A DNA stretch of 64,000 bases from a phage: sequence record OM867527.1; one strand, 5' to 3'. The notes under the pieces were generated by a model. That model was not told where the DNA came from, did not search any database, and was given only the letters and a program-made list of their open reading frames with translations. A program made the position numbers and the translations under genes. Shown in pieces: positions 4,144-60,861 of this stretch; position 1 is the first letter of the stretch, and each line of letters opens with the position of its first letter.

Positions 4144-5346
4144 ATGTTAAACTATAACGCTCCAATTGACGGTCAGAAATCTAGCATTGATGGTGCTGGT
4201 TCCGACCAGATGAATACTTATTACTGGCTGAAGAAGGCTATTATTCAGTCTCGTAAAGACCAGTATTTCATGCCTCTGGCTAACACCGTTAACATGCCGA
4301 AGAACTACGGTAAGACTGTTAAGGTGTATGAGTACGTTCCTCTGCTCGACGATAAGAACATCAACGACCAGGGTATTGATGCTAATGGTGCTACCATCGT
4401 TAATGGTAACCTGTACGGTTCTTCCAAAGACGTTGGTAACATCACTTCTAAACTGCCTCTGCTGTCAGAGAACGGTGGTCGTGTTAACCGTGTAGGTTTT
4501 ACTCGCCTGGCTCGTGAAGGTTCTATTCATAAGTTCGGCTTCTTCTACGAATTTACCCAAGAGTCTCTGGACTTTGATTCTGATGATCAACTGAAAGAAC
4601 ACCTGTCTCGCGAACTGATGAACGGTGCTGTACAGTTGACTGAAGCTGTTCTCCAGAAAGACCTGCTGGCTGCTGCCGGTACTGTACTGTATGCAGGTGC
4701 TGCTGTCTCTGATGCAACCATCACTGGCGAAGGCTCTACCCCGTCTGTAGTTTCTTATAAGAACCTGATGCGTCTTGACCAGATTCTTACTGAGAACCGT
4801 ACCCCAACTCAGACTACTATCATCACTGGTTCTAAACTTACAGATACCAAAGTACTAGGTGGTACTCGTGTAATGTACGTTGGTTCTGAACTGGTTCCAG
4901 AACTGAAAGCGATGAAAGACCTGTTCGGTAACAAAGCATTCATCGAAGTTCAGCACTATGCTGATGCTGGTACTCTGATGAATGGTGAAATCGGTTGTAT
5001 TGATAAGTTCCGTATCATCCAGGTTCCTGAAATGCTGCATTGGGCAGGTGCTGGTGCACAGGTTGGTACTAACCCGGGTTACCGTACCTCTATGGTATCT
5101 GGTCAGGAGCACTACGACGTATTCCCGATGCTGGTAGTTGGTGATGATTCCTTCTCTACTATTGGCTTCCAGACTGATGGTAAGTCTGTTAAGTTCACCA
5201 TCATGACTAAGATGCCGGGTAAAGAAACTGCTGACCGTAATGACCCGTATGGTGAAACTGGCTTCAGTTCTATCAAGTGGTACTATGGTATTCTGGTTAA
5301 ACGTCCAGAACGTCTGGCTCTGATTAAGACTGTTGCACCTCTGTAA
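4144..5346 (+). CDS. major capsid protein (N4 gp56-like)
   Basis: 400-aa ORF downstream of portal and scaffold-like genes; followed by a perfect 8-bp GC-rich hairpin, typical of highly expressed capsid genes. Confidence 0.65.
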
Positions 5347-5363
5347 TAGTCCGAAATAAAACA

Positions 5364-5383
5364 AGGGGGACATAAGTCCCCCT
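5364..5383. terminator. stable hairpin after the capsid gene (terminator or attenuator; orientation ambiguous)
   Basis: AGGGGGAC-ATAA-GTCCCCCT, perfect 8-bp stem; the T-rich tract lies on the minus-strand side and the plus-side tail is A-rich. Confidence 0.45.
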
Positions 5384-5413
5384 CTTAATAAAACTAAATG
5401 AACCACAGGAAAT

Positions 5414-6052
5414 ATGAACATGAGCATTAACGATAAACCGACCACTGACGTAGAAGTGAACGTACAGGGCAACGAAGATACCGTTAACGATATTGCAATG
5501 CCTAGCGAACTTGAAGTTCTTAAGCAACGTGCAACGTTGATGAATATCAAGTTCTCTAACAACATTTCCGTTGAGAAGCTTCGTGAGAAGATTGAAGCTG
5601 CACAAGTAAAAGATGAACCAGTAGTAGAAGCTGCTGTTAACCCACTGGGTGATAAGCAAGAAGCTGGTGTTAAAAAGATGACCCTGGGTCAGAAGATTCG
5701 TGCAGAACAGACTCGACTGATTCGTGTACGTATCCAGAACCTTGACCCTAAGAAGAAAGACCTGCCGGGTGAGATTATCACCGTAGCTAACGAATATATG
5801 GGTACTGTACGTAAGTTTGTTCCGTTCGGTGAAGTAACTGACAATGGTTATCATATTCCGTACTGTATCTACGAGTTCCTTAAAGAGCGTAAGTTCATCA
5901 ATATTACGACTCGTAAGGGTAAGAATGGCTTACCGGACATCCGTGCAACAGAAGCACGTGAGTTCTCCATTGAAGTACTGCCTCCGTTGACTGAAGCAGA
6001 ATTAGCTCAACTGGCTCAAGCACAGATTGCTGCTGGTAGCCTTAACGATTAA
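5414..6052 (+). CDS. hypothetical virion-module protein (212 aa)
   Basis: ORF in the structural block between the capsid gene and downstream virion genes. Confidence 0.4.
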   Translation: MNMSINDKPTTDVEVNVQGNEDTVNDIAMPSELEVLKQRATLMNIKFSNNISVEKLREKIEAAQVKDEPVVEAAVNPLGDKQEAGVKKMTLGQKIRAEQTRLIRVRIQNLDPKKKDLPGEIITVANEYMGTVRKFVPFGEVTDNGYHIPYCIYEFLKERKFINITTRKGKNGLPDIRATEAREFSIEVLPPLTEAELAQLAQAQIAAGSLND

Positions 6053-12128: not shown

Positions 12129-15100
12129 TTGAACAGGAATCATGCTATGTCAACATTTGACCGTCTGGCAGGTTTCGCAGACAGCATCACTACTGCTAAG
12201 CAAGTCGATGTCTCTACTGCAACCTCTCGGAAACAAGCTGAACAAGGGCAAAACCCTTTCCAATTAACTCCTCAGAACGCTTACCAATTACAGGCAGGCC
12301 GTGCTGGTAACTTAGGTGCTGGTGCATTTGACCCAGGATCTATTCAGGCAGATTTTACTAATGCCTCCCCTCTTGAAATCATAAATAAGTATGGCAATGA
12401 GCAAGGAATGGGCATTCTCAATGCTCGTGTCAATGCAGCTAATGCTGTTCGTCGTGATTTAACTAAGAGTCGTACATATGGTGAAGCACTTGGTGATACC
12501 CTTTCTGGTGTTGGTCTTGGTGTTGCTAATACCCTTGGGGGCATTGCTGCTCTTGGCACAGGCTTGGTCAATGATAATGCCGGGGCATCCATTGCTTCCG
12601 GTCTTGACTGGTTGAATAAAGGAGTACACAACCTACAGTCTGATGCACTGAATGCTCGCCGTAATGTAGTACAGAACCAGAACGTAATATCTGCTCAGGA
12701 AAACGAGAAACTCTATAAGCAGGATATTGATAAAGGAGAGAGTGAACTCGTTGCTTCTCTGTCTCGTATTGGGCGTGATGCTTATGATTCTGTTGCTAAC
12801 ACTTTGTCCAATGGCATGGCTGCTACAGATGGTCTGGCTGAAGGCGTTGGTTCACTGTTTACTGGTGGTCCACTTATCCGTGGTGTATCTGCACTTGGTA
12901 AAGTAATGGTAGGTGGGGATAAAGCTGTTAAGGGCATTACCTTAGCTGCTGAATTAGGTTATCGTCCTGCACGTATTGCACAGACTGCTGGTCGTGTTGC
13001 TGCACCTGCTATAGCAATTGGTGGTATGGAAGCTGGTGGTGCATACCAACAGACTGCCAATGAAATTATGGAAATGCCATTCAGTGAACTGGCTGCTAAA
13101 TCTCCTGTATACCAACAGCATATTAAAGACGGTCTGTCTCCGGAAGAAGCACGTCGTCAGACTGCATCTGAAACGGGTATCACTGCTGCTGGCTTAACTG
13201 CTCCGGTTGCTGCTCTTACTGGTCCACTGGTATCTAAGTTTGAACTTAACCCACTCAAAGTAGGTTCACTGGCTGGTGCTGGTTCTAACATGCTGCGTGA
13301 GACTGTAGAAGAGGGTATCCAGTCTGGTACAAGCCAGCTTGCACAGAACAAGGCAATTCAAGGTAATGTAGATGCTAAACGTGATTTGCTTAAAGGTGTG
13401 GGTGAACAAGCTGGTCTTGGTGCATTGTATGGCTTTGGTTCTGCTGGAGTTGCTCAAGCTCCTGGTGCAACTGTTAAGGCTGCTGGTGCTGCCGTTGGTC
13501 CTGTTGTACGTACTACCCTGGCTGGTGCTTCTCTGGCTGGTAAGGCACTAGCAAAAGTAGCTTCCCCTATTACTAACATTCTGGTTCAACGTGGGGAAGA
13601 AGTTGCTAAGCGTAATGAACAAGCATCCCCTGTATCAGACGCTACGGTTAATGCTGCTGCACAAGAAGCTACTGCTCAGGCAGAACAAGCACAAGCAACT
13701 GTTCAGGAAGCAGTAGATGCAATGGATATTTCTCCTGAAGAGAAAGCTGCTGCTACCCAGTATGCTGCTGACTTAACTCAGGCAATGAAGTTTGGCCCAG
13801 TAGAACTGGAACAAGCTAGTCCAGTAATCCGTGAAGCTGTTTCTGGTTCCACTAACCGTGTTGAAGCTATTCAGAAGATGGCTGACCTGGTTAATACTGC
13901 TGAAGACCCTAACGTTCAAATGGAAGCTGCAATCCAGATGTATGACAACATCATGTCTATGGATAGCTTCATTAACCGTGACCCAGGTGCATTAGCTAAT
14001 CTGGAACAAGGTTCTCCTGCTGCTAATATTGTTGACCAGTTCTCCGGCCTGATGGCTAACGTTCAGAATACACCTAAGGTGCTCCGTGCATTCCGTGCTA
14101 TCCATTCCATGATTCAGGAACAGGCAGAAGCAGGTAAACTGAAAGCTACTGAAGAAGCTAACCAAGCCCAGGCAAATAATATTGCTATGGCTGCTGATAT
14201 GTCTCCAGAAGTACTGGATGCAGACTCAGTGAACATGGTTCTGAAACATGCAAGTGAAGGTAAGATTACGCTGGGGAATCGTCAGCGTGCTGCCCTGCAA
14301 TCTGCTGCTGCTCTATTGCAAGGAGCACGAGAATTTGACGCTAAAGCAGAAGAACTGGGCTTACGTCCTCAAGACATTGTTAGTAAACAGATTAAAACCG
14401 ACGAATCTCGTTCTAATGAAGGCCAGTACTCTGCGTTGCAACATGCTAAACGCATTCGTTCTGCGTACAACTCTGGTAACTTCGATTTGGCTTCCGCTTA
14501 TCTCGACGACTTTATGAAGTTCGCCCAGCACATGCAGAATAAGGTCGGAGCGTTGAATGAGCATCTGATTTCGGGGAATGCGGATAAGAATAAGTCTGTC
14601 CATTATCAGGCTCTTACCCCCTCCCGTGAATGGGTACGTAGTCGTACTGGCCTCGGTGTCAATCCGTATGATACCAAGTCTGTTAAGTTTGCCCAGCAAG
14701 TAGGACTGGAAGCCAAGACCGTAGCTGATATTGCTAACGCACTTGCTACGGCTTACCCGGAGCTTAATGTTTCTCATGTGAAAGTTACCCCATTGGATTC
14801 ACGTCTGGACAAGCCTGCTGCTCAGGTAGTTAAAGAGTTCCGTCAGGGCAATCTTGATGCTGCTCAATCCCAACAGACCAATGAACCAGTGAATCAGGTT
14901 GATGAAACTCCTGTTACGAAACAGGAACCAGTTACCCCTACTGTACAGACTAAACCTTCTGTTAGTGAAGCTGTTAAAACAGAACCTACTATTAAAGAGT
15001 CTAAACCACAGACTGTAAAAGAACCTGAGAACCAGTCTGAAAAACAGGATAATGTTGATCAGTCTACTGAATCTGAAAGAGATGCTTATGTGAAAGAGAA

Positions 15101-18100
15101 TACTATTTCACAAGATACTCTTAATAAGTACGGTGACCGTAAAGAGAGTCCTTGGCTTTTTGCAGATGGTACTGTTGTTGGTTCCAATGGTGACCACATT
15201 AGCCTGTCTGATGTATTTGGTCATGATGGTTATCGTGATATGTCATTAGATACAGGTGCTATTCGCTCTACCTTCTACAAAGGAAGCGAGCAACCATTTG
15301 TATCATTGCAACTGTTTGATAATCAGAAACTGACTACTGAACAATTCAATACTGTTCAATCATTCGTAGAAGCAAACAATGCACTGATTCAGGTTGGTGT
15401 AGATACGTCTGGACGTAATACCAATAATGTTGAGAAGCAAGAAGTATCACTGGCTCAACTGAAAGCAGACTATACAGTTGGTGGTAAACCACTCTCTGAG
15501 ATGGAAACAGTGTTCCCTGTCTATAACAACGAAAAAACACCGAACCAGTTCCTTAAAGCATTTTCTCTACCAGAAGAACCTAAGTCCCGTACCATTGGTT
15601 CTGAATCCCCTTTGACTGATGTTAAGAAAGCACTGTCTTCTGCTGCCCGTTTCGAAGCATTCACTCAAAAAGAAAATAACGCTCTCACAAGTGATGTGAT
15701 TAAGCGTTATCAGGACTTAATGGGGTTTGGTGAAACTCTGAAGACTACTTTATCTGATCGTCTGGCTAAGTTCCTTGCTAACAAGAATGTTGGTAAACGT
15801 TTTGCAGAAGGTACTGAGGCTAACCGCTGGGTAGGTGGTAAGTTACTTAACATCGTTGAGAAAGATGGCGACACCTTTAAGTTCAATGACCAATTGTTAG
15901 AGACTGCTGTACTTGCTGGTTTGCAATGGCGACTTACTGCTACCCAGAATGCTGCTGTTAAAGACATGAAAGGCGTAGCTGCCATTACTGGTGTGGAGGC
16001 ATCCTTGTTACCTGAAGGTATCCTTGCAGAGTTTGAGAATGCTCAGACCCTGGTTGAAGCTACTAACTCACTGGCTCAAAAGATTGAATCCTATTGGGGT
16101 TTGAATCGTAATCCTAATGCACCTCTTGGTTATACCAAGGGTATCCCAATGGCAATGGCTACAGAGATTCTGTCTTCTCTCATTGAGATGGGTGAAGTTA
16201 AAGAGTCCATGCTGGATGTGTCTGAAATTGATCCAGAATCTAATAAGACTGTTGGTCTGTATACCATTGAGAAGTTAGATGATAACGATGCCATTAACAA
16301 ATTCCCTACTGCTATTGAGGAAGCTGTCCTCCTAGAACCAGAAGAGAAGATGTACTTTGGTGATGACATTCCTTCCGTGGCTCAAACTCAGTTACGTAAC
16401 CCAGCTGTTAAGAATACCCCGGAACAGAAAGCTGCTCTTAAAGCTGAGCAGGCTACTGAGTTCCATGTACATATGCCGATGGTTAACTTCTATGAAGCAT
16501 TGGGTCGTGACAACATTCTGGAGCTGATGGGTGCTGGTGCTCTTAATCCTGAACTACTGAATGTGAATACCGCTAAATCTCTGGAAGGTAAAAACCTGTC
16601 CGTGTCTATGGCATATGATTCCTTGTTTGGTGTAATCAACCAGATTAAGGAACAAGAGAATGGTTTGGATACACCTATTCACTACGGTTACAACATGACC
16701 CGTGTAGGTCGTATGCAGATGCTTGGTAAGAACAACCCACAATCCAGCAAGCTGGTACGTGAAGCAATCCTACCAACTTTCTCTACCATCGACTTAAGTA
16801 ATGAAAACAGTCAAACGTTCTCTGACTTCCAGCTTGGACTGGCTCAGGCATTGGGTATCAAAGTTCATAAAATGTCCCGTGAAGTTATGTCGGATGAGCT
16901 GACTAAAGCTCTGGAAGGTAAATTGAAACCTGCCGTTGATATGATGGTTGAGTTTGATAAGTCTGGGCACTTACCTACTGATGCTGTGGATATTCTGAAG
17001 ACCTCTTTGGGTAATGATAAATCATTTGTAGCTCTCATGGCTCTGATGGAGTATGCCCGTTACTTGAACAGTGATGACCGTGCTAACTTTAATACCCCAC
17101 TGTACGTTGAAGCTGATGGTGTAACCAACGGACCAATCAACGCAATGGTATTAATGACTGGTGGTAAGTTCACTTCAGATTGGATTAAGAATACTGCTAA
17201 AGGTGGTTTGTTCTTCGGTAAAGCTGGCAAGACTATGAACGAGCATCATTCACATGAGGATAGTGTTGACCTGTATGAAGCATCCACTAATAGCCTACAA
17301 CAGGCACTGAACGAATTACGTAATACTTATCGTAACAACGTTCCTGTTACGAACCAGATGAAGCATCTCCAGAAGTTAATGGACCTATTCATTAAAGACT
17401 TCAATCTTAAGGAAGATGGTACTCTGGACCTGAAACGCGGTATCGCTAAAAACCCACTGACTATCACCATCTACGGTTCAGGTGCTCGTGGTATTGCTGG
17501 CAAGATGGTAAGTGCAATTACTGATGTCATCTATGAACGCTTCAGTGACGTTCTGCAAGCCCGTGCTGCTGACCCTAGCATTTCCCCGGCTATGGCAATG
17601 TTTGGTAAGGAGGCTGCATCTGAAGCTGACGCTCAGGCTATGCTGGATACTTTCCTTACTTCTATGGAAGCACTGACTGGTAATGTTCCGGTTATGCGTA
17701 AAGGCGAGCTGTCTATTCAGCAGGTAGAAGGTGCTCTGACCGGTAAATTAGACCCTCAGAAGTTTACTGTATCCGGTAATGCTCTGAAGAACTTACAAGA
17801 GAACATGCTTCACTTGTTCGTTGAGCCAATGCGTACTGGTATCCGAAATACTGTTGGTGAAGGTCTGATGTACTCTACTGAAAATTTGCAGAAGGCTACT
17901 CAGATTCAATCACTGGTATTGCAGGATATGTTCCAACAGGCAGTACAGGCTAAACTGGCAGAAAAAGAAAAAGACCCAACATGGAAGAAGGGTGATTTCT
18001 TAACGCAGAAAGAACTGAATGAAATCCAGGAATCATTATCTCCACTGGCTCCAATGATTGAGACTGGTTCCCAGACTTTCTATATTGCTGGTAGTGAGAA

Positions 18101-21100
18101 TACTGATGTTGCTAACCAAGTACTGGCTACTAACTTAGATGACCGTATGCGTGTGCCAATGAGCATTTATGCTCCTTCACAGGCAGGGGTTGCAGGTATT
18201 CCATTTATGACCATCGGTACTGGTGATGGCATGATGATGCAGACGCTTTCTACTATGAAAGGTGCTCCGAAGAATACCCTGAAAATCTTTGATGGTATGA
18301 ACATCGGTATCAATGACATTACTGATGCAAGCCGTAAAGCCAATGCGGCTGTATATACTTCCTGGCAGGGTAACCCTATCAAGAATGTTTATGACTCCTT
18401 CTCTAAGTTCATGAAGAATGTAGACTTCAGCAAACTGTCCGATGAAACCAAACAGGCTATTGCTAAGTCTGCTCTGGAATACGACCAACGTGAAGGTGCT
18501 ACTGATGACCTGTTGCGTGTTGGTGCTGAACAGATTGAACGTAATCTGCGTAACATTGCTCTGGGTGTGGATATTCGTCACAAGGTAATGGACCGGGTAC
18601 AGGTTACCGTTGACCAGATGGCTGCTGTTGGTGCTCCTTATGTGAACAACGGTAAAATCTCTCTGGATGGTCTGACTATTGACCAGCAGGTAGCTAAGCT
18701 GAACGAACTGTTTGATGCTGAATTAAACAAGCGTCGTGATGCAGTACGTGCTTCTAAAGCAGAGCCAACGAAGGTAGAACCAGCGAAAGAAGTGCCAGTG
18801 GTTGAAGTACCTGCTATGGAGAAGGTTGGTCGTGTACTGAAATCTGGTGTACGTCTACTGTCTAATACTGCCATTACTAAACTGGCTAAAGAGATGTCTC
18901 CTGAGCAGCAAGCAGTATTGAAAGAGATACAGAAATCCCTTGTTGCTAAAGACTACAAGGTTGTTTACGGTACACCTTCTCAACTGGATGCTTACGCTAT
19001 TGAGAAGAACATTACTCGCCCAGCACCAGAAGATATTGAAGCTGCTGAAGCTGGTAATGCATACGGTTGGACTAACTTTGAAGATAAGACCATCTACTTA
19101 GTCACCCCTTCCTTAGAGACTCTGGTTCATGAATTAGTACATGCTTCTACTTTTGAATCTGTACTGGCTCACTATGAAGGTACTCCTAATGAAGCTGTCC
19201 AGAACATTGAAGACCTGATGAACCAGTTCCGTACTCTGGATGTTAAGGATGAATCTCCGGCAGTACGTGAAGCATATGCCGATGCACTGAATACCATTAA
19301 TGGTCATCTGTCCAATGGCTTCATTGAACCAGCAATGGCTAAAGCTGCTGCTCTGAATGAGTACATGGCCTGGGGTTTAACCAACCGTGAACTGATTAAT
19401 AAGCAGAAGAAAACCACTGCACTTAAAACTATGGTTCAGGCTGTATATGAGGCGATCAAACGTCTAGTATTTGGACGTAAGAAAGCTCCGGCTAATGCAG
19501 ATGATATGTTCTCTGGCTTACTGTTTAACTCTGCTGTAGTAATGCGTGGACAAGCTCCTACTGCTGCTGTAGCCAAAGACACTACCCTGTTCCATAACAA
19601 AGCATACGGTAACAATACTCGTCTGGAAGAGTTAGGGAAAACCTTCGATAAGCTGATTACTGACTACATTGGTTCAGAACCAGTACAGCAAGTAATTCGT
19701 AAAGGTAAGTTCTCTGATGCAGTAGTAAATGCAACTAAAGTAACTCGTGATGTTCAGGCTCATGGCTTCACCATGAATATGCAGGAACAACGCCTCTTTA
19801 CTAACATTGTTGCTGCACTAGCTACCGAGGCTGCTATTAACCCTGCTGCTATGGCTCGTGCACAGGAATACTACACACATGTTACTAAGAACCTGACCGT
19901 TGAAGCGTTCATGGCTGACCCGGATAGTACTAACCCTGCTGACCGTTACTATGCACAGCAGAAGTTTGACACCATCATGGGTGCTAACAACATTGAGTTT
20001 GATGCACAAGGTCGTTCTTCCTTACTGCCTACCTTTGTTGGTCTGGCAATGGTAAGCGAAGAGGTACGTAAGGTACTGGCTGACATTCCTGTTATGAAAG
20101 CAGATAAGAAATCAGGCAATACTGTTGATGCAATGCTGACTAACATCGGTACTGCTGCAATGGCTAGTCTGAATGCTCGTGTAGCAGGTGATACTAAAGC
20201 CACTAACGTACAGGAAGGTATGGATGCACTGGCTCAGACAATCATGCAGACCAGTCTTAATGCAGAGTCCTTCTATGATTCCGTTGCTACTCCTACCGGT
20301 AATGCTATTGACCGTGCTAACCAGTATCTGGTGGATTCTATTGATGCACTGTCTACCCGTGCTTTGGAAGGTGCTCGTGAAGTTGCAGCTAATACCAAGA
20401 ACCCACTGGTCAAAGGTGCTGCTCATGCTGCACAACTGATAGCTGCTATTGCTACAGAGAAGAATGGTTCAATTGTAGCTGAAGGTGTTATGGCTGCAAT
20501 GAACCAGGGTAGAGTATGGCAACCTTTCCATGACCTGGTTAATGACATAATCGGACGTACTAAGAGCAATGCTTCTGTATATGATTTGATTAAGGCAGTA
20601 CGTGCACAGGTACAGGCTGACCGTCAGCAGTTCCGTGAACACTTGCCTACCACTATCGCATCTAAGTTCAGCCGTAAGCTGACTAATGATGAGTGGAAAG
20701 CAATGCATACCGGTATGGGTAAAACTGACTTAGCTGTTCTGCGTGACACCATGTCTCTGGCTGAAATCCGTGACCTGTTGACTGACCAGAAGATTGTTGA
20801 CCGTGAGGTTAATAAACTGGAAGCAGATTTGCAGAAACAAGCAGGACGTAACTGGCCTCTGATTAATCGTAAATCTAAGCAACTGGCTCAGTACATGATT
20901 AACGGTACGGTCGGAAATAACCTGCTGCGTAATGCTACTGCAATTTCTCGTTTACTGGGTGAACGTAAGACTACACGTTCTGTTGTAGATGTAGCTCAAC
21001 TGGATAAACTCATTACCCTGTATGCACTGGAAGCAATGAATAAGACTGACCGTGAGATGTTATCTTCGCTGGCTCAGACAGAAATTGAAGGCATGGACTT

Positions 21101-22931
21101 TGCTACTTCTTACCTGGTTGGTCAGCGTAAGGATGAAATGGCTAAAGCCAAGTCTGATTCTCGTGCAACCATGAACCAGTACAAAGGGTATATTCCTGGT
21201 GAAACTAAACAAGGAGTTAACCTGATTGTTGCTGAAGATAGTCAGTTTGCTGATTTGATTGAGAAGTCTTATGTGCGACTGGGTACTTATCAGGGTAGCT
21301 CTGCTAACCGTGGTTCAGCACGTAGTTACTACTTTGCACCAGTACAGGCACAGGCTCCATTCTCGCAGGGTATTCTACAGAACGTTCGTAATACTGCTGG
21401 TGGTGTAGACCTTGGTACAGGCTTTACGATGGGAACCATGGTAGCTGGTCGTATTACTGACAAACCTTCCGTAGACCGTATCACTAAAGCACTGGCTCGT
21501 GGTGAACGTGGTAATGAACCACTGCTGCCTGTATATGATGCCAATGGTAATGTGGTTGCTTACGAGCAATCCATTGACCCTAACATGCTGAAGCACATTG
21601 AAGGTGAGAACCATCTTGCTCGTGCAATTGGTGTATGGCGTGGTCGTCAGGTGGAAGAAGCTAAGGCTCAGCGTTTCAACGATATGCTGATTGAGAATCT
21701 GCATAGTATGTACGAGAACGACATTAAGATGTCTGCTTCTAATAAGTCCCAGTACGTTAACCTTCTTGGTTCTAAACTGGACCCAGTAACTGCTGATGCT
21801 CTTAAACTGATGAACAGTGAAACTCGTCAGAAAGCGGAAAGTCTGTTTGGTCCGGGTGAGCTGTGGGTACGTCGTGACATGCTCAATGATGCTCTAGGTT
21901 ATCGTGCAGCTTCTGTTGGTGATGCCTGGTCTGGTAATTCTCGTTGGTCACCAGAAACACTAGATACCTTCAAGAAAGCTATGTTGGGTGTCTTCGGCAA
22001 CCGTGCCTATAAGTATGTAATGGGTGGTGAGAACCTGGTTCAGAATTTAGTTAAAGAAGCTAAGACTCTGATTGTAGTTAAATCGGTGGTTGTACCTGCT
22101 GTTAACTTCCTGGCTAACCTTTACCAGATGGTTGCTCGTGGTGTACCTGTTAAGAACATTGCTAAGAGCATCCCACAGAAAACTGCTGAGATTAACCAAT
22201 ACCTGAAATCTCGTCTGCGTCAGGTAGATGCAGAAGCAGAGTTACGTGCAGCTACTAACCCGAACCAGATTCGTAAGCTGAAGGCTGAGATTCAGTCCAT
22301 CACAGATAGCCATAAGCGTTTGAGTATCTGGCCTCTGTTGGAAGCTGGTGAGTTCTCTTCAATTGCAGATGCTGGTATTGGGCGTGATGACATCCTGATT
22401 ACTGAAGGTAAGATTCAAGAATACATGGGTAAGCTGGCCGATAAGCTGCCTAAATCTGTACGTAATGCAGGTCGTTATGCACTTATCACTAAGGATACTG
22501 CTCTGTTCCAGGGTATCCAGAAGACGGTTGAGTACTCTGACTTTATCGCTAAAGCAATCATCTATGATGAACTGACTCAGCGTAAAGGTAAGACTCGTGA
22601 AGAAGCACTAGGACGTGTAACGGAAGAGTTTATTAACTACGACCGTTTACCGGGTCGATTCCGTGGGTATATGGAAAGTGTTGGTCTGTTGTGGTTCTAC
22701 AACTTTAAGATTCGTTCCGCAAAAGTTGCAGTGTCCATGATTCGTAATAACCCAGTACATGCTGCTATGGCTATGTTGGCTCCAACTCCTACCATGTTTG
22801 GTAACGTTGGTCTGCCTATTCAGGACAACATCTTTAGTATTGCTGCACAGGGCAATCTCGGTTACTCCTTCGGATTCGGGCAAGGCTTACGTGCCCATAC
22901 CCTGAACCCTTGGCTCAACCTCACTAACTAA
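12129..22931 (+). CDS. virion-encapsidated RNA polymerase (vRNAP, N4 gp50-like), 3600 aa
   Basis: Single 10.8-kb ORF. T7-like single-subunit RNAP motifs read directly: TRVGR (R1528), motif A EADGVTNGPINA (D1663), motif B RGIAKNPLTITIYGSG (R1770, K1774, Y1782), motif C KIFDGMNIG (D2055). All five align at one constant offset (+1104) to the N4 mini-vRNAP residues R424/D559/R666/K670/Y678/D951 as I recall them. Confidence 0.92.
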   Translation: MNRNHAMSTFDRLAGFADSITTAKQVDVSTATSRKQAEQGQNPFQLTPQNAYQLQAGRAGNLGAGAFDPGSIQADFTNASPLEIINKYGNEQGMGILNARVNAANAVRRDLTKSRTYGEALGDTLSGVGLGVANTLGGIAALGTGLVNDNAGASIASGLDWLNKGVHNLQSDALNARRNVVQNQNVISAQENEKLYKQDIDKGESELVASLSRIGRDAYDSVANTLSNGMAATDGLAEGVGSLFTGGPLIRGVSALGKVMVGGDKAVKGITLAAELGYRPARIAQTAGRVAAPAIAIGGMEAGGAYQQTANEIMEMPFSELAAKSPVYQQHIKDGLSPEEARRQTASETGITAAGLTAPVAALTGPLVSKFELNPLKVGSLAGAGSNMLRETVEEGIQSGTSQLAQNKAIQGNVDAKRDLLKGVGEQAGLGALYGFGSAGVAQAPGATVKAAGAAVGPVVRTTLAGASLAGKALAKVASPITNILVQRGEEVAKRNEQASPVSDATVNAAAQEATAQAEQAQATVQEAVDAMDISPEEKAAATQYAADLTQAMKFGPVELEQASPVIREAVSGSTNRVEAIQKMADLVNTAEDPNVQMEAAIQMYDNIMSMDSFINRDPGALANLEQGSPAANIVDQFSGLMANVQNTPKVLRAFRAIHSMIQEQAEAGKLKATEEANQAQANNIAMAADMSPEVLDADSVNMVLKHASEGKITLGNRQRAALQSAAALLQGAREFDAKAEELGLRPQDIVSKQIKTDESRSNEGQYSALQHAKRIRSAYNSGNFDLASAYLDDFMKFAQHMQNKVGALNEHLISGNADKNKSVHYQALTPSREWVRSRTGLGVNPYDTKSVKFAQQVGLEAKTVADIANALATAYPELNVSHVKVTPLDSRLDKPAAQVVKEFRQGNLDAAQSQQTNEPVNQVDETPVTKQEPVTPTVQTKPSVSEAVKTEPTIKESKPQTVKEPENQSEKQDNVDQSTESERDAYVKENTISQDTLNKYGDRKESPWLFADGTVVGSNGDHISLSDVFGHDGYRDMSLDTGAIRSTFYKGSEQPFVSLQLFDNQKLTTEQFNTVQSFVEANNALIQVGVDTSGRNTNNVEKQEVSLAQLKADYTVGGKPLSEMETVFPVYNNEKTPNQFLKAFSLPEEPKSRTIGSESPLTDVKKALSSAARFEAFTQKENNALTSDVIKRYQDLMGFGETLKTTLSDRLAKFLANKNVGKRFAEGTEANRWVGGKLLNIVEKDGDTFKFNDQLLETAVLAGLQWRLTATQNAAVKDMKGVAAITGVEASLLPEGILAEFENAQTLVEATNSLAQKIESYWGLNRNPNAPLGYTKGIPMAMATEILSSLIEMGEVKESMLDVSEIDPESNKTVGLYTIEKLDDNDAINKFPTAIEEAVLLEPEEKMYFGDDIPSVAQTQLRNPAVKNTPEQKAALKAEQATEFHVHMPMVNFYEALGRDNILELMGAGALNPELLNVNTAKSLEGKNLSVSMAYDSLFGVINQIKEQENGLDTPIHYGYNMTRVGRMQMLGKNNPQSSKLVREAILPTFSTIDLSNENSQTFSDFQLGLAQALGIKVHKMSREVMSDELTKALEGKLKPAVDMMVEFDKSGHLPTDAVDILKTSLGNDKSFVALMALMEYARYLNSDDRANFNTPLYVEADGVTNGPINAMVLMTGGKFTSDWIKNTAKGGLFFGKAGKTMNEHHSHEDSVDLYEASTNSLQQALNELRNTYRNNVPVTNQMKHLQKLMDLFIKDFNLKEDGTLDLKRGIAKNPLTITIYGSGARGIAGKMVSAITDVIYERFSDVLQARAADPSISPAMAMFGKEAASEADAQAMLDTFLTSMEALTGNVPVMRKGELSIQQVEGALTGKLDPQKFTVSGNALKNLQENMLHLFVEPMRTGIRNTVGEGLMYSTENLQKATQIQSLVLQDMFQQAVQAKLAEKEKDPTWKKGDFLTQKELNEIQESLSPLAPMIETGSQTFYIAGSENTDVANQVLATNLDDRMRVPMSIYAPSQAGVAGIPFMTIGTGDGMMMQTLSTMKGAPKNTLKIFDGMNIGINDITDASRKANAAVYTSWQGNPIKNVYDSFSKFMKNVDFSKLSDETKQAIAKSALEYDQREGATDDLLRVGAEQIERNLRNIALGVDIRHKVMDRVQVTVDQMAAVGAPYVNNGKISLDGLTIDQQVAKLNELFDAELNKRRDAVRASKAEPTKVEPAKEVPVVEVPAMEKVGRVLKSGVRLLSNTAITKLAKEMSPEQQAVLKEIQKSLVAKDYKVVYGTPSQLDAYAIEKNITRPAPEDIEAAEAGNAYGWTNFEDKTIYLVTPSLETLVHELVHASTFESVLAHYEGTPNEAVQNIEDLMNQFRTLDVKDESPAVREAYADALNTINGHLSNGFIEPAMAKAAALNEYMAWGLTNRELINKQKKTTALKTMVQAVYEAIKRLVFGRKKAPANADDMFSGLLFNSAVVMRGQAPTAAVAKDTTLFHNKAYGNNTRLEELGKTFDKLITDYIGSEPVQQVIRKGKFSDAVVNATKVTRDVQAHGFTMNMQEQRLFTNIVAALATEAAINPAAMARAQEYYTHVTKNLTVEAFMADPDSTNPADRYYAQQKFDTIMGANNIEFDAQGRSSLLPTFVGLAMVSEEVRKVLADIPVMKADKKSGNTVDAMLTNIGTAAMASLNARVAGDTKATNVQEGMDALAQTIMQTSLNAESFYDSVATPTGNAIDRANQYLVDSIDALSTRALEGAREVAANTKNPLVKGAAHAAQLIAAIATEKNGSIVAEGVMAAMNQGRVWQPFHDLVNDIIGRTKSNASVYDLIKAVRAQVQADRQQFREHLPTTIASKFSRKLTNDEWKAMHTGMGKTDLAVLRDTMSLAEIRDLLTDQKIVDREVNKLEADLQKQAGRNWPLINRKSKQLAQYMINGTVGNNLLRNATAISRLLGERKTTRSVVDVAQLDKLITLYALEAMNKTDREMLSSLAQTEIEGMDFATSYLVGQRKDEMAKAKSDSRATMNQYKGYIPGETKQGVNLIVAEDSQFADLIEKSYVRLGTYQGSSANRGSARSYYFAPVQAQAPFSQGILQNVRNTAGGVDLGTGFTMGTMVAGRITDKPSVDRITKALARGERGNEPLLPVYDANGNVVAYEQSIDPNMLKHIEGENHLARAIGVWRGRQVEEAKAQRFNDMLIENLHSMYENDIKMSASNKSQYVNLLGSKLDPVTADALKLMNSETRQKAESLFGPGELWVRRDMLNDALGYRAASVGDAWSGNSRWSPETLDTFKKAMLGVFGNRAYKYVMGGENLVQNLVKEAKTLIVVKSVVVPAVNFLANLYQMVARGVPVKNIAKSIPQKTAEINQYLKSRLRQVDAEAELRAATNPNQIRKLKAEIQSITDSHKRLSIWPLLEAGEFSSIADAGIGRDDILITEGKIQEYMGKLADKLPKSVRNAGRYALITKDTALFQGIQKTVEYSDFIAKAIIYDELTQRKGKTREEALGRVTEEFINYDRLPGRFRGYMESVGLLWFYNFKIRSAKVAVSMIRNNPVHAAMAMLAPTPTMFGNVGLPIQDNIFSIAAQGNLGYSFGFGQGLRAHTLNPWLNLTN

Positions 22932-23433: not shown

Positions 23434-23480
23434 AGAGTGGTTTGAATTTGTACTTAAACATGATTGCGTTCATCAATACT

Positions 23481-23510
23481 CAAATAAAAAAGTCCCTCCG
23501 AAGAGGGACT
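23481..23510 (-). terminator. rho-independent terminator (minus strand)
   Basis: Minus-strand reading: AGTCCCTC-TTCG-GAGGGACT followed by TTTTTTATTTG. Confidence 0.55.
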
Positions 23511-23737
23511 TAGTAGCTTTAACGCAGCTAACGAGGCTAGGCCAGTTAACTATTACCACCGGTGCTTGTACCAGCAAACAGGATTGATAGTCCGATAATA
23601 GTTAACTGTAATTGAGCATTATAGTCTGCTCATACTCACACCGTTAGGTATGTTTACAATAACTAGAGTGCCGGACTGTCTCACCGGCATTGTCTTTAGA
23701 GTGCAATGCAATCAGGACTATGTTCTCTATTAATGAG

Positions 23738-44476: not shown

Positions 44477-44490
44477 AACAGTACCTGTAA

Positions 44491-44518
44491 TTAAAAAAGC
44501 CCACGGGTTAGGTGGGCT
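44491..44518 (-). terminator. rho-independent terminator (minus strand)
   Basis: AGCCCAC-(7-nt loop)-GTGGGCT followed on the minus strand by a T6 run. Confidence 0.5.
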
Positions 44519-44591
44519 TGGGTTAGGAGATGGATAAGCAATGAGCTGGAAGTAACTTCCAGAAGTACCCTCTTAGGGATACTTCGGTTAG

Positions 44592-48603: not shown

Positions 48604-48628
48604 TTCCTGGCTCCAGGATGTTTAAGTC

Positions 48629-48658
48629 AAAAAAAGACCTCCTTTCAATAAGGAGGTC
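48629..48658 (-). terminator. rho-independent terminator (minus strand)
   Basis: GACCTCCT-(7-nt loop)-AGGAGGTC with a T7 run downstream on the minus strand. Confidence 0.55.
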
Positions 48659-48707
48659 AATAGATATCAAAGGAATGTTATGGGTTTTATCAACCCAAAT
48701 AAAGCAA

Positions 48708-53040: not shown

Positions 53041-53067
53041 TGCATATCCTTAAGCTGCGGAGCAGCT

Positions 53068-53418
53068 TTAACTCCAGTAGTTGTAAGCATCACCTAAGTA
53101 TTTACGCCATGCTTCTGGTAACAGCACGTTGCCAGTGACATTAATGAACAGGTATGGGTCCATAAAATCCATTCTCATTACTTTGAAATCCCATTGCGGA
53201 TTAATAGATGCATAAGCAATAAAACCCTCAATGAAGCCATAAATAGCACCTTCTTTGATCCGGTCACCACTACCATCTCTTACCGGAATGGCGAAGCTAT
53301 TACCATAATGACCATAGGCCATTCCCCATCGAGCACCATGCTTCTTATAAGCTAATTTGGCAGCAGCATTAGTATGCTGCCCTAGTGTATTGGTAGTGAA
53401 TACTAAGATTTCTTTCAC
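53068..53418 (-). CDS. hypothetical protein (116 aa)
   Basis: Member of a translationally coupled small-gene operon (4-nt ATGA overlaps). Confidence 0.4.
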   Translation of the reverse strand: MKEILVFTTNTLGQHTNAAAKLAYKKHGARWGMAYGHYGNSFAIPVRDGSGDRIKEGAIYGFIEGFIAYASINPQWDFKVMRMDFMDPYLFINVTGNVLLPEAWRKYLGDAYNYWS

Positions 53419-55603: not shown

Positions 55604-55685
55604 GGTTATTTCTCCTATTTAAATACATATCTAACTATTCAAGAATAAAAAATAGAAGCCCTCCTAATGGAGGACTCCTTACAGT

Positions 55686-56747: not shown

Positions 56748-57128
56748 TTAGAAAGTCAGTTTACGAGCATATTTATTCTCGTCTGCTGGGATGTCAGCAG
56801 CCTCTGCTTTCACACGACGAAGTTGAACTTGCAGGTTAATGATACCTTCCTCACCTGGTTCCAGGTTCTGAGCATATGCAATTAACTGTTCAAGCAAGTC
56901 ATTCTGTGCACAACGCATAGCACGGAAGTCAGCATTGCTGCTATTAGTAGGCAGCGGTTCCTGAGTATCCAGTGGAATACCAGTAGGCAGAGAGATGAAT
57001 TTCTCATCATCAGAGCCTTCGTTAGCTACATAACCAATGTTCAGCCAGAACTGAGCTTTAGGCTTATCAGTTTTAGCAGTGGTAGCAGCAGCGTTAAATT
57101 GACCGAAAGTGAATTTTTGAATAGACAT
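56748..57128 (-). CDS. hypothetical early protein (~126 aa)
   Basis: Start placed at MSIQKF with a GGAGAG RBS (the longest ORF extends to 57227). Confidence 0.4.
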
Positions 57129-57311
57129 TTTGTACTCTCCAGATAAATGATTGTTTGATTTATGGGTTTGTCCGTCGGTGACTAAACCCAAGAAAAGACT
57201 TAGGATTTCGATAAGAAGTGGATTCATTCTTATCCTTTAGACGCGGAGCGTCTTGGTTTTTAGAAGTAGAAGTAAAGTAGATAGTTATCTACTTTTGACT
57301 ATCTATCTAAT

Positions 57312-57349: not shown

Positions 57350-57673
57350 TTAGTCTTTAGTCAGGATGTCAATTACTTTGGAATATTCTGCGTTATAGAT
57401 ACGAGCGTTCTCTGAATCCTTGCAGAATTCCTCAATACTTTTCTTACGCAGAGTCTCAGTCATAGCTGTTTCCTCTGCCAGTTTATTAACAAAGGTATGC
57501 ATTTCTAATTTAGTACGAATGGCTTGTTTCTCTGCCATAGTACTTACATATGAATTAAGCATACCTACTGCTTTAGTTGCTGTACTGAATGTATCTGCAA
57601 CAGTAGTAGCAGCTGAGTTAACAGTACCAAGTAAAGTTCCTGCGGTCATACGTACAGTAGCTTGAGTAGTCAT
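57350..57673 (-). CDS. hypothetical early protein (107 aa)
   Basis: Thr/Ala-rich N-terminus; sits downstream of the 550-bp structured intergenic region. Confidence 0.4.
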   Translation of the reverse strand: MTTQATVRMTAGTLLGTVNSAATTVADTFSTATKAVGMLNSYVSTMAEKQAIRTKLEMHTFVNKLAEETAMTETLRKKSIEEFCKDSENARIYNAEYSKVIDILTKD

Positions 57674-58222
57674 GATGATAGCTCCAATAGTTGATGATAG
57701 GACGACATGTCCATAACATGCGGAGCATGTGTAACGTGTAAGGTGGGGTAGGGTAGTGGCTACACCGTCAACATACCGGGGGGGCTAGTTGAGTGTAAGG
57801 GTGTAGCCCCAGCCACACCACTATAGCCATGCATAACTATCACAATTTTGACATGCAAAAATATTATAGGCACTGTCTCTATAAGCAGATAACTTTGAGG
57901 TACTAACATGAAAGATGGATGGGGTAACTACAATCCTACAGACCCTGAGAACTGGTTGCACTTTATTGCCTGTGCTTGTGCTGTAGGATTCATAGGTATT
58001 GTACTCTTGTCACTGGTTCTACCTTATTTATAAATACTATGGGGGATATCTATCTATCCCCTATTCATCGTAGCGTTTGATACTTAAAACCTCATATAGC
58101 CTACCATTTACAAGCAATGGTCCACCTACTTCTATGAAAGCTAGGCTGTGTACTATCACTGGTTCAGAGGAATAATGCAGTAAGTTAGTACCTTTCATTC
58201 CTAATAGTTTAACGTTCATGCT

Positions 58223-58507
58223 TCAGTACCTTTCCTTATAGATTGGGGTGTTGTTCTCGAAGGATAGGATGTACTTGTCTGTATTGAGATGCCAAGGGCT
58301 AAAGCTACCCTGCCAGGACATTGGTGTACCTGGTTCAAGTAGATGTACTACCGAATTCTTATTGTATAGGAAGAGTAATCCTTGTATCTCATGTAGGGAC
58401 TGTTCATCTGGAACCAGGATAAGTACATCAGCATTCAGGTCAGCTATTTCTTTATGGAGGATGTAATTTTCCCCATTAGGCTCTGGATAAATTTTACTGA
58501 TAACCAT
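58223..58507 (-). CDS. early small protein, paralog family member (94 aa)
   Basis: Shares the motif VLILVPDEQSLHEIQGLLFL and an MxIxxIY-type N-terminus with four neighbouring ORFs. Confidence 0.5.
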   Translation of the reverse strand: MVISKIYPEPNGENYILHKEIADLNADVLILVPDEQSLHEIQGLLFLYNKNSVVHLLEPGTPMSWQGSFSPWHLNTDKYILSFENNTPIYKERY

Positions 58508-58827
58508 TAGAGACTCTTGCCGCTAGATAAATATGAGGTAGAAGGGTAGAGGGTAATAAGCCTGCCAGTTAAGGTAGTTACTACCATAGGTTCATTTTCA
58601 GAGAGTATGTACACGGAGGTGTGTTCCGGTATTTCCACGGAATCTACTATCTTAATGAATTGGATAGGTTGCCCTAACATTAAGCAAGTACCTATGAACA
58701 CATCTGCTTCTTCACTTGGCTCATACAAGATGGCAGTAACTCTACCCTTACCTGCCAGAATATTATCCAATGTGTATGGGGATAAATAGCAAGTAGTGGC
58801 AAAGCTAATCAGGCAATACAGGTGCAT
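58507..58827 (-). CDS. early small protein, divergent paralog family member (106 aa)
   Basis: TAILYEPSEEADVFIGTCLMLG aligns to the family motif but lacks the His-Glu pair. Confidence 0.4.
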   Translation of the reverse strand: MHLYCLISFATTCYLSPYTLDNILAGKGRVTAILYEPSEEADVFIGTCLMLGQPIQFIKIVDSVEIPEHTSVYILSENEPMVVTTLTGRLITLYPSTSYLSSGKSL

Positions 58828-58830
58828 ATC

Positions 58831-59145
58831 TTACTTCCTTACATAGTAGTAACGGTATTCCCCCTTCTCATAACGACTCTCCCACTGATAGTCATCAGAT
58901 ACCATCATGTATGGGATAGGGTCATTAGCGTTATAGTTGGTATAGACAGAAGGAGGAATGATACATACAACCTTACGATCAATACCTGCTAAGAAAAGTT
59001 GACCCCTTACTTCATGGTAGTCCTCTAGAGCAGGAACTAAGATTACTTGATGAGGATTACTGCATATGACTTCTTCTAAAGTGAAGTCAGTTGTATACAT
59101 AGGCTCCCTTTCATCATAGCTGGGGATGGTCATTATGAATTTCAT
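58831..59145 (-). CDS. early small protein, paralog family member (~105 aa)
   Basis: Motif VILVPALEDYHEVRGQLFLAG; start placed at MKFIMTI with an AAGGA RBS (longest ORF starts at 59208). Confidence 0.5.
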   Translation of the reverse strand: MKFIMTIPSYDEREPMYTTDFTLEEVICSNPHQVILVPALEDYHEVRGQLFLAGIDRKVVCIIPPSVYTNYNANDPIPYMMVSDDYQWESRYEKGEYRYYYVRK

Positions 59146-59509
59146 GATTGATTTTCCTTCCTTTAGGGATAGGTCTGAAGTAAATGGAAAGTGTTTTATT
59201 AAAGACATTATGGGCAGCTATCAATTCCCAACCAGGTATTTTATAGAAACGTATACCAGGGAAGAACTCTTTGAAACCGTCATAACAGGTGAGGTCATAC
59301 ACCTTTGGTTCGGTAAGTATCTCGGTATTGAGTTGTAGGTTTGCTAAGAAGAGAGAGCCAACAATCTCATGGGATTCTTCACAGTTAGGTAAGAACACAG
59401 ATTGCCAGGGAGCAATGAACTTACTTACTGTTTCTGGTTCCCCAAGTAGATAAGGTTCTTGCTTATGAAGTACTCCGGTAATATCAATATCAAAAGCGTA
59501 GATGCTCAT
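59114..59509 (-). CDS. early small protein, paralog family member (131 aa)
   Basis: Motif SVFLPNCEESHEIVGSLFLANL; AGGAGG RBS; preceded by a hairpin and U-tract. Confidence 0.5.
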   Translation of the reverse strand: MSIYAFDIDITGVLHKQEPYLLGEPETVSKFIAPWQSVFLPNCEESHEIVGSLFLANLQLNTEILTEPKVYDLTCYDGFKEFFPGIRFYKIPGWELIAAHNVFNKTLSIYFRPIPKGRKINHEIHNDHPQL

Positions 59510-59523
59510 ATTTGCATACCTCC

Positions 59524-59561
59524 TGAAAAAGAAATGGGGTAGAGCCTCTCGACTCTACCCC
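59524..59561 (-). terminator. hairpin plus U-tract directly upstream of an early gene (terminator/attenuator-like)
   Basis: 9-bp stem GGGGTAGAG/CTCTACCCC with an 8-nt loop; on the minus strand it is followed by ATTTCTTTTTC, then AGGAGG and the ATG of gene 59114-59509. Confidence 0.4.
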
Positions 59562-59709
59562 TTACCGTTTTCTATCACGGGTCAGTTCATCACCCTAGAT
59601 ACATGTGTATCGTTAGCCTACTAGGTAGGAAAGGAGCCGGGCAACCCTGACTGTAGAAGTTATTAACTCTTTACGAGTACCGCCACTGTCTACTAGGCGG
59701 CATGACTAA

Positions 59710-60000
59710 TCACATCGTCACCGTCATCCGAACACTGTCTTTGCTTCGCCTGACGGAGACACTATGAGGTAATTTTGTGAAGAACACAAGAGCTGAAAGG
59801 CGTTTTTCTAAAGAGTAAGTTTCTCTTGGTTCTAAGATTTTAATGCCTGGACGATTCTCTAAAAGCATCATCCCAGCTAATTCATGGTAGGTGTCTTCAT
59901 CATGTGTGATAATAATGTCATCTGAGAGAATACCAGCTTTAGTGTGGTCTAGTTCTTTGTATTCATCTTTAGAGTCCTGGACTCTCATATAGATTCTCAA
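59710..60000 (-). CDS. early small protein, paralog family member (96 aa); first gene of the minus block
   Basis: Motif DIIITHDEDTYHELAGMMLLEN and N-terminus MRIYMRV match the family. Confidence 0.45.
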   Translation of the reverse strand: MRIYMRVQDSKDEYKELDHTKAGILSDDIIITHDEDTYHELAGMMLLENRPGIKILEPRETYSLEKRLSALVFFTKLPHSVSVRRSKDSVRMTVTM

Positions 60001-60171
60001 AGGTTACTCCTTTTAGTAATAGGGTCATCGGAACATTACATACTATACAGTATCATGAACTTTTTCTATATCATGACTAAAGTGTAACTGTATGGTATCG
60101 TTTCTTCAAGGGGTAACTCACCCCAAGAAAAGAATCTTCTTTAATAGACATAACTTTGTAGCGAGATAAGT

Positions 60172-60861
60172 ATGAGTGAATTAACTAAGCAGCAGATTAT
60201 TAATGCCTTACCTGCTAACTTCAAAAACAGTGTGACCCAGGAGTTGGTAGACACGATTAACAACATTACCCAAGACCAACTGGTTGCTGAGTCCTTCCGT
60301 GAAAACTTTATCTCCTACTCTGGTGTAATGAAGGAAGGTAAGTTTAAGACGCAGGACTACATGAATGCAGTTCAGTATGTGACTTACAAACATATGGGCT
60401 ACTCAAATAAGGAAGCCTACTTCAAGACATTCCCTAACCGACAAGCAGAACTCGTAGCACGAGGAACCAGTGAGAAAGATATTAGTGCTTATGTATCTGC
60501 TTATCACAGAGGTAAGCTAGTTAACCTCATCATGGAACAAAGTTTGGTTCCAGTGTGGATTGTGAACCAGGACAATTATCAGAAGGCTATCAATGTTCAG
60601 GTTGAACTGATGACTACAGCAGTAAGTGAGAAAGTAAGATGTGATGCAGCTAACTCTATCCTTACTCACTTAGCTAAACCAAAGGATCAGGTAACAAATA
60701 TCAATCTGGACTTGAGAGAGAACTCTGGATTAACTGACCTCAAGGCAACACTTGCTGCATTAGCTGAACAGCAAATCAGTGCAATCAATAGTGGTGTACC
60801 TACCAAAGAGGTTGCTGGTTCTAAACTAGTACGTGCAGATGAGGACATTACAGATGTCTGA
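60172..60861 (+). CDS. putative terminase small subunit (229 aa)
   Basis: Directly upstream of the terminase large subunit with an overlapping stop/start; no motif verified. Confidence 0.35.
   Translation: MSELTKQQIINALPANFKNSVTQELVDTINNITQDQLVAESFRENFISYSGVMKEGKFKTQDYMNAVQYVTYKHMGYSNKEAYFKTFPNRQAELVARGTSEKDISAYVSAYHRGKLVNLIMEQSLVPVWIVNQDNYQKAINVQVELMTTAVSEKVRCDAANSILTHLAKPKDQVTNINLDLRENSGLTDLKATLAALAEQQISAINSGVPTKEVAGSKLVRADEDITDV

Follow-up and report, generated by a model that had tools for sequence, protein, structure and literature searches.

Five consecutive small minus-strand open reading frames (ORFs), designated genes A to E in order of increasing coordinate, occupy positions 58,223 to 60,000 of a 64,000-nucleotide stretch of phage DNA (sequence record OM867527.1; the whole stretch is referred to as the window). 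Profile comparisons indicate that all five genes, the divergent copy B included, are homologous and constitute one superfamily restricted to the Schitoviridae. Comparison with related genomes places the array directly upstream of the right terminal repeat, probably in the part of the genome that enters the cell last, and the promoter scan indicates that it is not an early unit of the N4 type. The preferred reading, to which a probability of about 0.5 is assigned, is that the products are non-enzymatic accessory binding proteins, made at the middle stage of infection from the last-entering end of the genome. New here are a previously unmerged superfamily of ORFans in a model phage group and a corrected map position; because no function is established, the practical weight of the result is moderate.

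Positions 57900-60200 matched Escherichia phage HK2 (PP514361; Schitoviridae, Enquatrovirinae, Gamaleyavirus) at 100% by megablast, and 58 further related records matched the same interval at 80-95%. Window coordinates equal HK2 record coordinates plus 258. An earlier annotation made from the letters alone (the sequence-only reading) had called the phage N4-like, and the window does encode a virion RNA polymerase (vRNAP) of 3600 aa. The five ORFs were recovered from the ORF listing with the coordinates and lengths given in that reading, and all are annotated "hypothetical protein" in the HK2 GenBank record. For decades N4 has served as a model phage; its genes gp70-gp72 are without assigned function or expression class.

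Homology of the five genes

Each HK2 protein matched its own PHROG family (phrog_7213, phrog_9160, phrog_11661, phrog_12099, phrog_16338; E 1e-41 to 1e-63). PHROGs lists these as five separate families of "unknown function", whereas here they fall into one superfamily, and cross-hits between PHROGs connect A, C and E (gene C also hit phrog_16338). Shallow family profiles compared with HHalign joined A to C (95%, E 2e-8), A to E (93%, 4e-7) and C to D (64%, 6.5e-5), and aligned B with D in the right register at 15%; gp1, included as a control, gave no match. Profiles for hidden Markov model (HMM) searches and HHalign were deepened with members from Moo19, Jgk1, N4, KP8 and metagenomes. When one family at a time was left out, HHalign recovered A at 96%, B at 88%, C at 94%, D at 94% and E at 88.5%, with E-values from 4e-9 to 3e-6. 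The least favorable of these values (3e-6) was that of gene B, which is nevertheless taken as a true family member because the leave-one-out comparison recovers it. Every member family was likewise recovered by hmmsearch from a profile of the other families, and when all six-frame ORFs of 50 aa or more in the window were searched with the superfamily HMM, just these five matched. The sequence-only reading had proposed five tandem paralogues with a shared central motif and had suggested profile alignment as a check; the motif similarity is significant by these comparisons, the quoted motif strings are present verbatim, and MAFFT aligns them in register unguided. In the MxIxxIY-type N-terminus described there, the third column is I, L, F or V in 87 of 91 family sequences, and both AlphaFold models have a beta-strand at this place.

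The same reading did not recognize the family. Sequence-profile searches of Pfam, NCBIfam, PADLOC and PDB with the five proteins gave no match, and none of these resources held a well-characterized family that would explain the five copies; in PADLOC, which covers defence systems and not anti-defence, there were 0 matches at E up to 1. A search with D alone returned only close Gamaleyavirus orthologues. An exhaustive HMMER profile search of 1.84 billion cluster representatives returned 15 clusters only, all from the N4-like phage group, and no relatives beyond that group. A literature search for gp70/gp71 function found nothing relevant.

N4 gp70 and gp71 (YP_950548, YP_950549) and G7C gp70, gp71, gp71.1 and gp71.2 are direct orthologues of the HK2 genes, in the same orientation and likewise flanked by the gene for the terminase small subunit and by the right terminal repeat. 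N4 has only these two family members, and G7C is without copy A and ORF F, a 52-aa ORF that follows gene A. All N4 and G7C orthologues are annotated "hypothetical protein", and the paralogy of gp70, gp71 and the extra copies is not noted in the annotations and papers examined. The five "unknown" PHROG families are thus merged into one that takes in gp70, gp71 and extra genes of Gamaleyavirus, Moovirus and Kaypoctavirus.

Map position, genome ends and early promoters

The sequence-only reading had placed the array at the start of the early block, at the first-injected end of the genome. The orthologues in N4, G7C, KP8 and JWAlpha follow the terminase genes at the right end and point towards the right terminal repeat just downstream. 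The HK2 ends were predicted by comparison with homologous genomes whose records start at the left terminus: the left end of N4 begins TGGTGGGGCTACACCCC and that of G7C begins TGACAGGGGCTACACCC, and BLASTN of the G7C ends together with the N4 left-end match place the predicted HK2 left terminus downstream of the array, where the conserved left-terminus sequence (TGGTGGGGCTACACCC in N4) maps. In N4, DNA entry begins with the left end, and vRNAP hairpin promoters occur nowhere else (PMC4496689); terminal repeats of 390-440 bp and transcription-driven DNA entry were described by Ceyssens et al. (PMC3715699).

vRNAP promoters were defined as hairpins having a stem of 5-7 bp and a loop of 3 nt (GGA or GAA on the template strand). 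Exactly three GC-TCC-GC hairpins followed by A(A/T)GGA were found on the early-gene (minus) strand, centered at 57724, 57247 and 53061. They correspond to N4 early promoters P1-P3, and the known N4 P2 sequence was recovered at the equivalent place. The first two precede gp1, which is the first early gene, and gp2. No vRNAP-type hairpin promoter was found by the scan in 58000-60200. Because it is without such a promoter, the array is judged from its sequence not to be an N4-type early unit, and neither the early-block assignment nor the first-injected position is upheld.

An early takeover or anti-defence array, injected first and transcribed by the injected vRNAP, is accordingly improbable on the map evidence. 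Its attractions are an orientation shared with the early and middle genes, a small, diversified, multi-copy make-up like that of many anti-defence loci, and, on a circularized or arbitrarily opened map, a place directly upstream of gp1. These are outweighed by the right-end position of the array in the four genomes named above, where it precedes the terminal repeat and lies outside it, by the terminus sequence downstream of it, and by the canonical hairpins that gp1, gp2 and the third site have and the array has not. The array looks like the head of the early block because records have been opened arbitrarily, as in HK2, or between gp70 and gp71, as in Moo19, where array genes are numbered gp1-gp6. 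Circularly permuted GenBank records thereby make genes that probably enter last look like the first early genes, and the corrected map matters for anti-defence searches that follow a "first-injected end" logic.

Distribution, copy number and selection

gp70 was found by tblastn in 86 phage records, all Schitoviridae, and the superfamily, where detected, spans three subfamilies. Copy number varies from 2 to 7 among relatives: N4 has 2 copies, G7C 4, HK2 and KP8 5 each, pSb-1 6 and a related contig 7, and Moo19 7 (gp1-gp6 plus the gp70 orthologue gp86). Achromobacter phage JWAlpha, from a different subfamily, has a gp70-like gene and four gp71-like genes, two of the five being matched by HMM and the rest assigned by motif and by fold matches in BFVD. 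This bears out the diversified array with varying copy number that the sequence-only reading had anticipated. The superfamily, expanded 2- to 7-fold by lineage and always just upstream of the right terminal repeat, offers a testable accessory module. gp70 (gene E) is single-copy in each genome and is the conserved anchor of the module.

UE-S5a and one further locus (L004) have a disrupted or partly duplicated gene B, and D is frameshifted in ECBP1. The ratio of nonsynonymous to synonymous substitution rates (dN/dS) was 0.15-0.33 for all five genes, against 0.02-0.03 for terminase; on this basis all five are real coding genes under purifying selection. Their dN was 10-50 times that of the adjacent gp69 and TerL, which indicates that the array genes evolve fast. 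Of the readings considered, functionless decaying duplicates or artefacts of gene calling are the least probable: the disrupted copies and the absence of A from G7C speak for decay, but dN/dS is well under 1 for every gene, ribosome-binding sites and translational coupling are present, intact ORFs are seen in dozens of genomes and in 684 database proteins, and the predicted folds agree between copies.

The slot next to the right repeat was compared with that of the N4-like phage LUZ7, in which the right terminal repeat is immediately preceded by 29 small ORFans (gp87-gp115; PMC3715699, PMC9163698). These occupy the same place, after the gp69-like gene, on the Watson strand and before the right repeat. 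BLAST joined 16 of the 29 (locus L068, 8699-14346) into one paralogous family; its members (~55-75 aa) are unrelated to the HK2 family and present in far more copies, and LUZ7 has no gp70 orthologue. The superfamily HMM did not match the LUZ7 right-end ORFans. These ORFans, the small KP8 paralogues described below and ORF F were each considered as superfamily members and rejected. Because the LUZ7 family is unrelated to that of HK2, the slot upstream of the right terminal repeat appears, from these sequences, to be a repeated host of lineage-specific multi-copy families.

Predicted fold and the His-Glu pair

Genes A and D were modelled with AlphaFold2 from a superfamily alignment of 70 sequences. 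The models were of moderate confidence (A: predicted local distance difference test, pLDDT, 74, predicted template modelling score, pTM, 0.63; D: pLDDT 79, pTM 0.72) and share the predicted order b1-a1-b2-(acidic loop)-a2-b3 followed by a beta-meander. The central motif spans b2, the acidic loop and a2, in which one Gly is near-invariant. Foldseek of the A model against BFVD, a check also suggested from the sequence, matched independent models of C-type, A'-type and N4-like gp71 proteins, as well as models of four KP8 proteins and of proteins from Achromobacter N4-like phages; the KP8 and Achromobacter proteins map to the right-end arrays of those phages. The check therefore yielded cross-matches within the family and no characterized structural relative: the BFVD matches were limited to small, uncharacterized Schitoviridae proteins, and fold searches with the A and D models gave no convincing structural neighbor and no DNA-binding fold.

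The sequence-only reading had taken a His-Glu pair, invariant in four copies of the motif, as a possible metal or catalytic site. Over the 91 family sequences in which residue conservation was counted, His was present in 68 and Glu in 64; the near-universal residues were one Gly, one Pro and one Asn/Gly only, a pattern that does not fit a metal-dependent His-Glu enzyme. The pair is replaced in HK2 B (D-V) and in Moo19 gp3-type copies (N-L) and is missing from all five KP8 copies and from the JWAlpha copies; the Moo19 orthologue of B carries EEAHEFIG, with His-Glu restored. Because the pair is not conserved across the family, these sequences make a general catalytic or metal site unlikely. That the proteins are small enzymes or metal-binding proteins with an acidic loop and a His-Glu active site is therefore very doubtful, even though an E/D-rich loop precedes the pair in four of the five HK2 genes and in the majority of Gamaleyavirus, Moovirus and N4 sequences. 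The lost pairs count against it, as do the absence of a Walker A motif, a length (94 aa) too small for an ATPase, and the absence of any enzyme-family profile match in Pfam, NCBIfam or PDB.

Intergenic elements and predicted expression

gp70 and gp71 are separated by a gap of ~200 nt that all relatives examined have conserved (HK2, G7C, Jgk1, N4, KP8, JWAlpha and metagenomic relatives). The gap contains a CCGCC/GGCGG helix, an invariant block TTAATAACTTCTACAG (TTAATAACyTCTwCAG) and, ~25 nt before the start of D, a GC hairpin with a T-run. RNAalifold detected compensatory changes in two or three helices, and Rfam gave no match in the region. The element could be a small RNA, a gp70 3′ untranslated region or an attenuating leader, and is a candidate regulatory RNA common to subfamilies. 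A second element, AGATTCTTTTCTTGGGGT(5 nt)ACCCCTTGAAGAAAC, lies between gp69 and gp70. It is nearly invariant from HK2 to N4, almost unchanged though the flanking proteins are only ~30% identical, and has a single exact site in the window; it is a candidate promoter, operator, packaging site, origin or other cis-acting site.

At least four clear gaps of the middle gene block (minus-strand genes, 23400-56000) repeat the layout of hairpin, T-run and ribosome-binding site seen ahead of D, with the next start codon within ~20-45 nt of the GC hairpin and T-run. Middle promoters of LUZ7 are GC-rich hairpins, and by analogy these gaps may be dual terminator and promoter sites. ACTTTAG, GATTCTTTTCTTGG and TTAATAACYTCTWCAG, examined as recurring middle-promoter motifs, occurred at chance frequency or were unique in the window; the conserved blocks ahead of E and D were of the unique kind. 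A sigma-70 scan gave one weak site, which falls within gp69; because coding constraint accounts for the conservation of this site, it was not used.

Transcription would probably start in the conserved gp69/gp70 intergenic region, most likely at the middle stage. The gp70 unit would end at the conserved structured element with its intrinsic terminator, and D-C-B-A-F, tightly packed with overlaps or gaps of ≤4 nt, would form a tightly coupled operon. Because these genes are packed behind the terminator, their expression would need read-through. The LUZ7 right-end cluster is covered by mid-infection transcripts (PMC9163698), and the HK2 array is assigned by analogy to the middle class, which in N4 is transcribed by the gp15/gp16 RNAPII.

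Functional reading

On the preferred reading each paralogue would be a non-enzymatic module that binds a host (or phage) macromolecule, with copies arising by duplication, diverging and being lost; this is the weakest step of the proposal. The proteins are read as accessory binding proteins because they are small, mildly acidic, without conserved catalytic residues or a match to any curated family, fast-diverging, variable in copy number and occasionally decaying. The most likely class would be putative modulators of host defence or host physiology; an anti-defence or host-takeover role is a candidate only. The proteins are 90-135 aa long and mildly acidic (isoelectric point, pI, 4.7-6.1; net charge -2 to -6), and a DNA-mimic function was rejected on the low net charge.

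Several points weigh against this reading. In three subfamilies gp70 and gp71 keep a fixed place beside the terminase genes and the terminal repeat, a pattern that suits a core function at the genome end more than a purely accessory role. Since the LUZ7 cluster belongs to a different protein family, the argument on timing is one of analogy only. The strong terminator ~25 nt upstream of D makes read-through uncertain, the HK2 termini were placed by sequence homology, and with pLDDT values of only 74 and 79 the lack of a structural relative is provisional.

The principal rival gives the proteins a genome-end role or one in replication and packaging: gp70, gp71 and the further copies would act on DNA at the concatemer junction or right terminal repeat, in end protection, terminal-repeat regeneration, terminase site finding or replication, and not on host defences. 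It is favored by the strict synteny from the terminase genes through gp70, the structured element with its terminator and the gp71-like genes to the right repeat, which holds across Enquatrovirinae, Rothmandenesvirinae and others. The highly conserved intergenic elements, unique in the window, point the same way, as do a single-copy gp70 present wherever it was looked for and the replication-related role that the LUZ7 authors suggest for their right-end cluster (PMC9163698). Fast divergence, variable copy number and disrupted copies would be unusual for core replication or packaging factors, however, and mildly acidic proteins without a detected DNA-binding fold, together with an unrelated LUZ7 family in the same position, suggest a permissive accessory slot. 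This role is considered rather unlikely overall.

A more specific proposal, considered rather unlikely, keeps the array among counter-defence functions that act late. It describes a module conserved across Schitoviridae at the genome end that enters last, made up of gp70, a ~200-nt structured RNA ending in a terminator, and a variable number of gp71-like paralogues of undescribed fold; the RNA would gate expression, and the paralogues would be a new class of effectors that diversify, such as inhibitors of those host defences that target replicating or late-stage phage DNA.

Features of the array and its neighbors

Gene E has a TTG start that aligns with the ATG of N4 gp70, with an AAGGAG ribosome-binding site 5 nt ahead of it. 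Its product is 31% identical to N4 gp70 over residues 1-79 by tblastn (E 2e-9), 33% by BLASTP (76 bits), and 79% identical to G7C gp70. It is the first rightward gene after gp69 and divergent from it, a layout shared with N4, G7C, KP8 and JWAlpha. Gene D belongs with gp71 by colinear, full-length similarity (N4 gp71: BLASTP 24% identity over 114 aa, E 2e-7; G7C gp71: 89%) and by its position after gp70 and the ~200-nt gap; its disordered C-terminal tail overlaps the start of gene C. The gene C ORF extends further upstream, and the MKFIM start used in GenBank gives 104 aa; identity to G7C gp71.1 is 85% (tblastn). Gene B is 84% identical to G7C gp71.2, and its stop overlaps the start of gene A (TAATG). 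Divergent forms of gene A were found by tblastn across loci in other Gamaleyaviruses and in Moo19 (gp6). ORF F is annotated in HK2 and, not being matched by the superfamily HMM, is outside the family. A 625-bp segment of HK2, missing from G7C as an indel, contains gene A, ORF F, the hairpin that closes the block and a plus-strand ORF. Coordinates are collected in the table.

Table. Window coordinates of the array, its flanking elements and early promoters; the last row refers to other loci, as named
Feature	Coordinates	Strand	Description
gp69	60172-60861	+	terminase small subunit
gp69/gp70 intergenic element	60100-60137	.	candidate cis-acting site; alignment, pattern search
Gene E	59710-60000	-	96 aa, TTG start; orthologue of N4 and G7C gp70; phrog_7213
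gp70-gp71 gap	59510-59709	-	structured, non-coding; alignments, RNAalifold, terminator scan
CCGCC/GGCGG helix	59680-59701		within the gp70-gp71 gap
Invariant block	59651-59666		within the gp70-gp71 gap
GC hairpin and T-run	59536-59561		within the gp70-gp71 gap
Gene D	59114-59509	-	131 aa; orthologue of N4 and G7C gp71; phrog_9160
Gene C	58831-59145	-	104 aa (ORF 58831-59208); orthologue of G7C gp71.1; phrog_11661
Gene B	58507-58827	-	106 aa; orthologue of G7C gp71.2; divergent copy without His-Glu
Gene A	58223-58507	-	94 aa; extra gp71-like copy without G7C counterpart; phrog_16338
ORF F	58061-58219	-	52 aa; last gene of the D-C-B-A-F block; phrog_19797
Hairpin GGGGATAGATAGATATCCCC	58042-58061	-	closes the D-C-B-A-F block; terminator-like scan
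Segment missing from G7C	~57900-58525		625 bp
Plus-strand ORF	57908-58033	+	41 aa
Predicted left terminus of packaged genome / terminal-repeat start	~57815	-	BLASTN of G7C ends, N4 left-end match
vRNAP hairpin P1, ACATGC-TCC-GCATGT	57716-57730	-	ahead of gp1; hairpin scan
gp1	57350-57673		first early gene
vRNAP hairpin	57239-57253	-	before gp2
gp2	56748-57227		second early gene
vRNAP hairpin	53052-53068	-	third early site
Middle-block gaps with hairpin and T-run	55604-55685, 48604-48707, 44477-44591, 23434-23643		between minus-strand genes
vRNAP ORF	12129-22931		3600 aa
HExxH protein	L017 (KP8) 5353-5685; L011 (Jgk1) 4535-4852; L002 (UE-S5a) 922-1251		phrog_1365

The plus-strand ORF in the 625-bp segment encodes a hydrophobic protein and is annotated in GenBank. 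The gp2 homologue is annotated "RNA polymerase subunit A" in GenBank; in N4, gp2 binds single-stranded DNA and recruits RNAPII as a cofactor, and is not a polymerase subunit (PMC4496689), and the label looks propagated and misleading. Some right-end arrays carry a protein of ~105-110 aa with an HExxH motif (LVHELNHF), which has no Pfam match and is absent from HK2. In KP8 (L017), three small ORFs of 56-68 aa (4976-5182, 5157-5351 and 5685-5855) are alike by eye (GNVY...INIRT...LIGT.Y) and would, on that likeness, form a second multi-copy family in the same slot.

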